Source of the DNA: Somniosus microcephalus
Lineage: Eukaryota
DNA length: 64,000 nt
NCBI GenBank assembly: GCA_052327205.1
Contig: CM126202.1
Span: 400,086,001 to 400,150,000 of the forward strand
Direction: 5' to 3'
Shown: piece by piece, positions 8,754 through 12,117 of the stretch
Layout: each line of letters starts with the position of its first letter
Position numbering within the stretch: the first letter of the stretch is position 1
Program-made: the position numbers and the translations under genes
Notes under the pieces: model-generated
The model's input: only the letters and a program-made list of their open reading frames with translations
Databases searched by the model: none
Told to the model about the DNA's origin: nothing

Positions 8754-12117
<3,364 letters not shown>

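Follow-up and report, generated by a model that had tools for sequence, protein, structure and literature searches.

Intron 4 of a vertebrate OGT gene is predicted to contain a long-range RNA helix, here called P1, in which the counterpart of the first five human mOGT codons pairs with a partner 1.1 kb upstream. The helix was found in a shark sequence (the window, the whole 64-kb stretch of DNA analyzed), where reading of the sequence places OGT on the + strand. A second ortholog, L001, forms the homologous P1 duplex. The folding models make it probable that P1 forms. The helix and its inner extension occupy the following positions.

10889..10903, + strand: 5' arm of P1, with long-range complementarity to 11985-11999.
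11985..11999, + strand: 3' arm of P1, the counterpart of the first five human mOGT codons and the core of the finding.
10909..10917, + strand: 5' strand of the inner extension of P1, pairing with 11975-11984; a 5-bp part is identical in L001.
11975..11984, + strand: 3' strand of the inner extension of P1, pairing with 10909-10917.

The surrounding intron was laid out from its exons, published human landmarks, and splicing-signal consensus sequences.

8883..12117, + strand: OGT intron 4, 3235 nt long, orthologous to the detained intron of human (3270 nt).
12118..12234, + strand: OGT exon 5, 39 codons in the TPR region.
10437..10571, + strand: decoy/poison exon homolog with putative boundaries (acceptors after 10436 and 10439, donors after 10564 and 10571).
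12022..12028, + strand: probable distant branch point for intron 4, with its A at 12027, assigned by consensus.
12000..12020, + strand: conserved stretch separating P1 from the branch motif, the remainder of the mOGT-like match, including its TGA.
12033..12115, + strand: long AG-free pyrimidine tract, whose length varies between species and sets the mOGT frame.

All 39 residues of the exon 5 query match human OGT residues 178-216 in the protein comparison. The length of the human detained intron is that of a single supplementary row of PMC12017769. The decoy donor region matches, by eye, the published human anti-decoy morpholino (PMC7373989), and the decoy exon landmarks are kept in L001. Since this morpholino fixes the decoy at about 10437-10571, the P1 5' arm lies about 320 nt downstream of it, and the possibility that the arm is part of the decoy exon was rejected. 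The human ISS spans 526 nt from a PspXI site onward (PMC5588854). A PspXI-type site matching the ISS start is found 400 nt before the P1 5' arm in the window and 383 nt before it in L001, and the arm, mapped by this offset, is therefore probably inside the ISS. The mOGT-like element occupies intron nucleotides 3103-3132, outside both the ISS range (intron nucleotides 1771-2297) and the decoy exon. More blocks conserved in L001 are present in the 5' half of the intron (9336-9353, 9569-9626, 9739-9829, and 9897-9929) and include an 18/18 match. Elsewhere in the window, fragments of LINE-type reverse transcriptase are numerous (45922-47091 and further long frames between 20 and 56 kb). The best named matches of one such reverse transcriptase, at about 70-75% identity, belong to Chiloscyllium, Hypanus, Leucoraja, and Mobula, versus about 50% for birds and turtles, and the source of the window is accordingly taken to be elasmobranch-like.

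The second ortholog came from a scan of metagenome contigs, which returned one locus, L001, carrying OGT exons 4-6 on one contig. No further OGT orthologs were found in the genome contigs (0 loci) or viral contigs (0 loci) scanned. L001 is a 17.6-kb vertebrate OGT contig within a metagenome collection and is presumably host DNA. By published primers it is neither human nor mouse, and by eye it is nearer to mammals than the window is; its sequence appears amniote-like. Across exons 5 and 6, none of the 65 amino acids differ between the window and L001, and four-fold sites are saturated (18 of 23 differ).

The 3' arm of P1 lies in an element that the initial annotation had described as a noncoding counterpart of the mOGT start. 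The bases of 11985..12014 and their reading, LLQVHFCLV-stop, are as described there: TTG stands where ATG would be, a stop follows at codon 10, and exon 5, from 12118, is 133 nt away and out of frame. The human start given in that annotation agrees with the published human mOGT cloning primer (PMC4901358), and the primer matches 11985-12009 by eye at 22 of 25 bases, in keeping with the claimed nucleotide similarity. In L001 the element lies 119 nt from exon 5, has ATA in place of ATG, and contains a stop; over the element alone, L001 aligns to the window with an E value of 4e-10. The 22-nt stretch common to L001 and the primer has a single match in the 64 kb, at 11988-12009 with 2 mismatches; 0.01 matches are expected by chance at 3 or fewer mismatches, and 1 of 100 shuffles had one. 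The match is positionally orthologous: the element precedes exon 5 by 150 nt in human, 119 nt in L001, and 133 nt in the window, and it is collinear with the other conserved intron blocks.

Two sequences were available for a codon-substitution comparison. Amino acids change in 4 of 11 codons of the element, compared with 0 of 65 exon codons, and four-fold sites are saturated, which indicates that the element is under constraint of a noncoding kind. When its L001 reading was used as a protein query (1 candidate), no match was obtained. Of the features of an mOGT-type coding start, the window and L001 have the positional and sequence orthology and lack both an ATG about 150 nt upstream and an open frame into exon 5. 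The element is thus common to the shark window, the amniote-like L001, and human, with no coding signature, and its earlier interpretation as an ancient noncoding element acting at the RNA level holds. These data support the conclusion that the element is older than, and independent of, the mOGT open reading frame. Its co-option as coding sequence in some mammals is unproven. Other papers reportedly ascribe a function to mOGT, by way of up-regulation. In the extract of PMC4901358, only some primates, goat, and cow have an open mOGT frame (4 of the 13 nonhuman mammals tabulated), and endogenous mOGT was undetected.

The P1 arms are reverse-complementary over 14-15 bp, with two G.U pairs in the window. 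When the upstream intron of the window was searched for duplexes, 10889-10903 was the best partner of 11960-12020. P1 is present in the minimum-energy fold of 10840-12125, with 15 bp and a mean pair probability of 0.87, and the same fold contains inner helices at 10909-13/11980-84 and 10914-17/11975-78. In constrained ensembles, the probability of P1 is 0.92 for the window and 0.67 for L001. The free fold of L001 has just 7 bp of P1 in its minimum-energy structure, in competition with a local hairpin, H1, described below. With the 30-mer (11985-12014) alone, stronger chance partners were found elsewhere in the 64 kb, and P1 was outside the top 10. An outer extension of P1 across 12000-12015 appeared in duplex folds and was absent from the full fold of the window; it was dropped. 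The interior of a two-sequence consensus fold was set aside because the alignment is poor.

An exhaustive scan of the aligned intron columns ranked P1 first by both length and energy (14 bp; -23.8 kcal/mol in the window and -23.6 kcal/mol in L001), and the next helix reached -13.4 and -13.8 kcal/mol. Among column shuffles that preserved dinucleotides, 0 of 1500 attained the energy of P1 and 1 of 1500 its length (null, -8.8 ± 2.1), a null that is post hoc, since the helix was first noticed by eye. Seven conserved blocks, some of whose limits in L001 were placed by hand, give 21 pairs, and only two of these fell below a z score of -2 in both species: P1 and a pairing nested within it, P3. The P1 block pair had z scores of -4.2 (window) and -4.1 (L001), with 0 of 200 shuffles reaching it in each. 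Four block pairs low in one species only were discarded: B1xB7 in the window and B6xB7, B2xB6, and B4xB5 in L001. In these tests, no pairing partner common to the window and L001 was found for 9562-9627. When 3501 nt were scanned with the covariance models of Rfam families (E of 1 or below), none matched at the gathering score; the one match, which scored far lower, was on an AT microsatellite elsewhere. The nested pairing involves two blocks.

11499..11554, + strand: 5' block of P3, a conserved pairing nested inside P1.
11899..11931, + strand: 3' block of P3, a conserved pairing nested inside P1.

The P3 blocks had z scores of -2.6 in the window and -2.0 in L001 (2 and 7 of 200 shuffles). In the window, the homologous partner of the 5' block ranks sixth, and better-scoring partners lie elsewhere in the intron. 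Just inside P1, a long irregular stem of 10909-10979 with 11318-11398 is possible in both species despite divergence of the primary sequence; its energies of -67 kcal/mol (window) and -81 kcal/mol (L001) are raw duplex values. The looped domain also contains one copy of TGCATG (11921-11926), an RBFOX-type motif. Motifs of the form YGCY, of MBNL type, number 23 in the window and 6 in L001 within 10889-11999, so their number is not kept.

The window and L001 differ at 3 of the 28 P1 arm positions, and all three changes keep the pairing. One pair is changed at both bases, from G.U to U.G, and another at a single base, from U.G to U-A; between these two sequences, nothing breaks a pair within the 14 bp, and the 15th pair is broken in L001. 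So few changes do not allow a covariation statistic. Published mammalian primers (PMC4901358) read C and G, by eye, at the doubly changed pair, which would be a third state, C-G; the passage cited leaves the species of the upstream primer unstated. One base of the doubly changed pair accounts for the Val-to-Gly change in the peptide comparison of the initial annotation. Two spacings are identical in the window and L001, namely, 26 nt from an internal AG to the 5' arm and 28 nt from the 3' arm to the branch-like A (12027), and the P1 loop is 1111 nt long in the window versus 816 nt in L001, a difference of 295 nt.

Conservation of the arms could also reflect independent linear motifs, such as CUGCAG-based protein sites or U2AF decoys in one case and branch-flanking sequence in the other, with complementarity as a by-product of a palindrome. 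The 6-bp core of P1 is the palindrome CTGCAG, and two copies conserved for other reasons would therefore pair by default. Moreover, the 25 invariant arm positions are silent on pairing, conservation continues beyond the helix (12000-12020), and PTBP1, U2AF65, hnRNPK, and U2AF35 bind the human intron (PMC13676730). Nevertheless, the pairing runs 8-9 bp past the palindrome and is joined by the inner helix, the dinucleotide-preserving nulls never reach P1, and the three pair-preserving changes are accompanied by a second, nested pairing. We consider independent motifs unlikely.

The orientation of the pairing bears on whether the conservation acts at the RNA level. Every non-Watson-Crick pair in P1 is a G.U pair on the sense strand, and the minus-strand rule allows at most 8 bp. 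This asymmetry favors sense RNA over a DNA-level element, such as an enhancer or an internal promoter for an mOGT-type transcript. A relic of a coding exon is likewise at odds with the absence of ATG in both nonhuman sequences, the stop or frameshift present in both, and the excess of amino acid changes in the element over the exon codons. An internal promoter, which mOGT reportedly has, would fit a DNA-level role. The intron also holds the ultraconserved element uc.475 and expressed subregions (PMC7261177, PMC3895275). Taken together, a DNA-level element or coding relic is highly improbable as the source of the conservation, and the sense-strand helix is preferred.

Upstream of the P1 5' arm, a second set of splicing signals and a competing hairpin were recognized.

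10811..10863, + strand: candidate conserved internal 3' splice site, with a branch-like CTAAC (A at 10820), an AG-free tract (16/20 pyrimidines), and CAG at 10861-10863.
10855..10895, + strand: alternative local hairpin H1 (10855-10864 with 10886-10895), a competitor of P1 in which the internal AG would be concealed.

The internal 3' splice site lies about 300 nt past the decoy donors, and 13 of 13 positions around its CTAAC motif are identical in L001. It looks stronger than the acceptors of the decoy itself (16/20 versus 9/20 pyrimidines). Exon 4 joined to this acceptor would run into a stop after 29 codons. A donor-like GT motif at 10886-10894, weaker in L001, runs into the first bases of the P1 5' arm; together with the internal acceptor, this motif would delimit a micro-exon of 25 nt. 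H1 is weak in the window (z score, -0.95) and strong in L001 (z score, -3.76). Its probability in the window is 0.002 in the full region and 0.025 when the 3' arm is left out; the corresponding values for L001 are 0.075 and 0.635. The folding models thus make H1 convincing only in L001.

The initial annotation had placed a possible competing acceptor at 11994, and the AG at 11992-11993 could compete with the exon 5 acceptor or act as a decoy for it, its use adding 124 nt and shifting the frame. CTGCAG|G is invariant in the window, L001, and the human primer, and PCCR arms are enriched at cryptic or inactive splice sites (PMC8052449). On the other hand, the pyrimidine tract before this AG is short and is degraded in L001 (13/20 in the window versus 10/20), neither species has a CTRAY or TTRAY before it in the final 200 nt, the site is itself upstream of the conserved branch motif, and the AG is paired within the predicted P1. 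This part of the annotation is not supported, and use of 11994 as an acceptor is quite improbable. By these sequence features, 10863 would be the better candidate for a competing acceptor.

We consider it somewhat likely that P1 acts in the processing of intron 4, compacting the 3' third of the detained intron and tuning competition between acceptors. In this model, P1 would form on nascent OGT pre-mRNA and enclose, within the last third of the intron, a structured domain about 1.1 kb long. Once this domain is looped out, the branch point and pyrimidine tract that serve exon 5 would lie next to the internal 3' splice site at 10811-10863 and to the 3' end of the decoy/silencer region. P1 would also bury two CUGCAG acceptor-like motifs in each other. 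It would thereby tune U2AF and U2 assembly at the intron end and, with it, the balance between detention and productive splicing of exons 4 and 5; the effect could run in either direction. The 28-nt gap between P1 and the branch A is about the size of the region contacted by U2/SF3b upstream of a branch point. The human mOGT leader would then be a P1 arm, branch region, and pyrimidine tract read as codons, in a frame open only where the length of the tract allows.

P1 could instead form and act on the detained RNA, through compaction, nuclear retention, decay, or a double-stranded platform for ADAR, rather than on splice site choice. This possibility draws on the same folding evidence. A helix of 14-15 bp is short for ADAR, and the constant distances from P1 to both sets of splicing signals suggest a splicing role. 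A-to-I editing is enriched among stable PCCRs (PMC8052449), and OGT RNA with the intron retained is abundant (PMC5588854, PMC13676730). On balance, a role confined to detained RNA is improbable, and a role in splicing is favored.

Within splicing, a modulating role in the O-GlcNAc response is more plausible for P1 than an essential one in basal retention. Placed in a foreign intron with short flanks, the decoy causes strong retention, which is lost when its donor is mutated (PMC6097662); since this construct works there, P1 appears to be unneeded for basal silencing. The ISS alone silences but ignores drugs, and its authors call for additional cis-acting sequences (PMC5588854). About 21% retention remains after the decoy is blocked (PMC7373989). 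P1 is therefore proposed, from modeling, as a candidate for the extra cis-element behind O-GlcNAc responsiveness. A bolder version is doubtful: the 3' third of vertebrate OGT intron 4 may be a structured RNA switch, kept since the split of sharks from bony vertebrates, in which 10886-10903 toggles between H1, with the internal 3' splice site hidden, and P1, with that site exposed and docked beside the exon 5 branch point. On this view, the O-GlcNAc-responsive component that the ISS lacks would be the toggle, with the mOGT leader an accidental reading of it, and the path between the internal AG and the donor of exon 5 would drop from 1371 nt to about 260 nt.

The principal feedback loop in O-GlcNAc homeostasis is detention of OGT intron 4, which is also a target of antisense drugs (PMC5588854, PMC12864184, PMC13676730), and the extracts of PMC5588854 and PMC12017769 leave the extra O-GlcNAc-responsive cis-element unnamed. 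P1 is a precise candidate, with one arm probably within the ISS and the other outside. Should the 5' arm indeed fall within the ISS, the ISS deletions already made would abolish P1 as well. P1 would also give a reason why the mOGT start keeps its sequence but not its frame, which bears on mOGT as a selected isoform. The intron's conservation, its ISS and decoy, and the lack of conservation of the mOGT frame have all been published. Our literature search, chiefly outside subscription journals, returned no report of long-range structure in OGT intron 4, and no description of the conserved internal 3' splice site was found in the extracts of the OGT ISS/decoy literature consulted.

The element resembles the human mOGT leader (PMC4901358) as its positional ortholog, with 22 of 25 primer bases shared and the frame not conserved; unlike that leader, the shark sequence has no ATG, has an early stop, and lies 133 rather than 150 nt from exon 5. 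The extract of PMC4901358 reports no significant homology in zebrafish intron 4, yet the region is conserved in the shark window; the extract gives no reason for the conservation of this stretch. With the OGT ISS and decoy (PMC5588854, PMC6097662, PMC7373989, PMC7261177, PMC12017769), the system described here shares the same intron, decoy landmarks at 10437-10571, and a P1 5' arm and internal acceptor that are probably inside the ISS, whereas the mOGT-like element lies about 1 kb downstream of the ISS. EvoFold predictions 36852-36854 (PMC3895275) are likewise predicted conserved RNA structures in OGT intron 4, but they are short local hairpins in or upstream of uc.475 and cannot be the 1.1-kb pairing.

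Stem-loops that conceal branch sites of poison exons, for example in SF3B3 (PMC11162794), are also deeply conserved intronic structures near a branch site in a feedback-regulated intron; the main text of that paper contains 0 occurrences of OGT. In such structures the branch A or a neighboring base is paired within a local stem of at least 7 bp. P1 differs in being long-range and in stopping 28 nt before the branch A, and in the window fold a low-probability local stem of 8 bp (p, 0.47) spans 12025-12032. A further comparison is with PCCRs (PMC8052449), which are defined by at least 10 nt, -15 kcal/mol or lower, a span below 10 kb, and conserved intron blocks. P1 has 14 bp, -23.8 and -23.6 kcal/mol, and spans of 1.1 and 0.8 kb, with conservation taken from two sequences and not from phastCons. 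P1 may be an anonymous row among the 916,360 PCCRs catalogued. The name OGT is absent from the PCCR supplement text searched (245,821 characters, too small to hold all 916,360 rows) and from the supplements of PMC10691357 and PMC11632617. P1 itself is a computational prediction. It shares with PCCRs a position near a splice site, avoidance of the branch point, and coverage of cryptic AGs, and competing partners are likewise present in ATE1.
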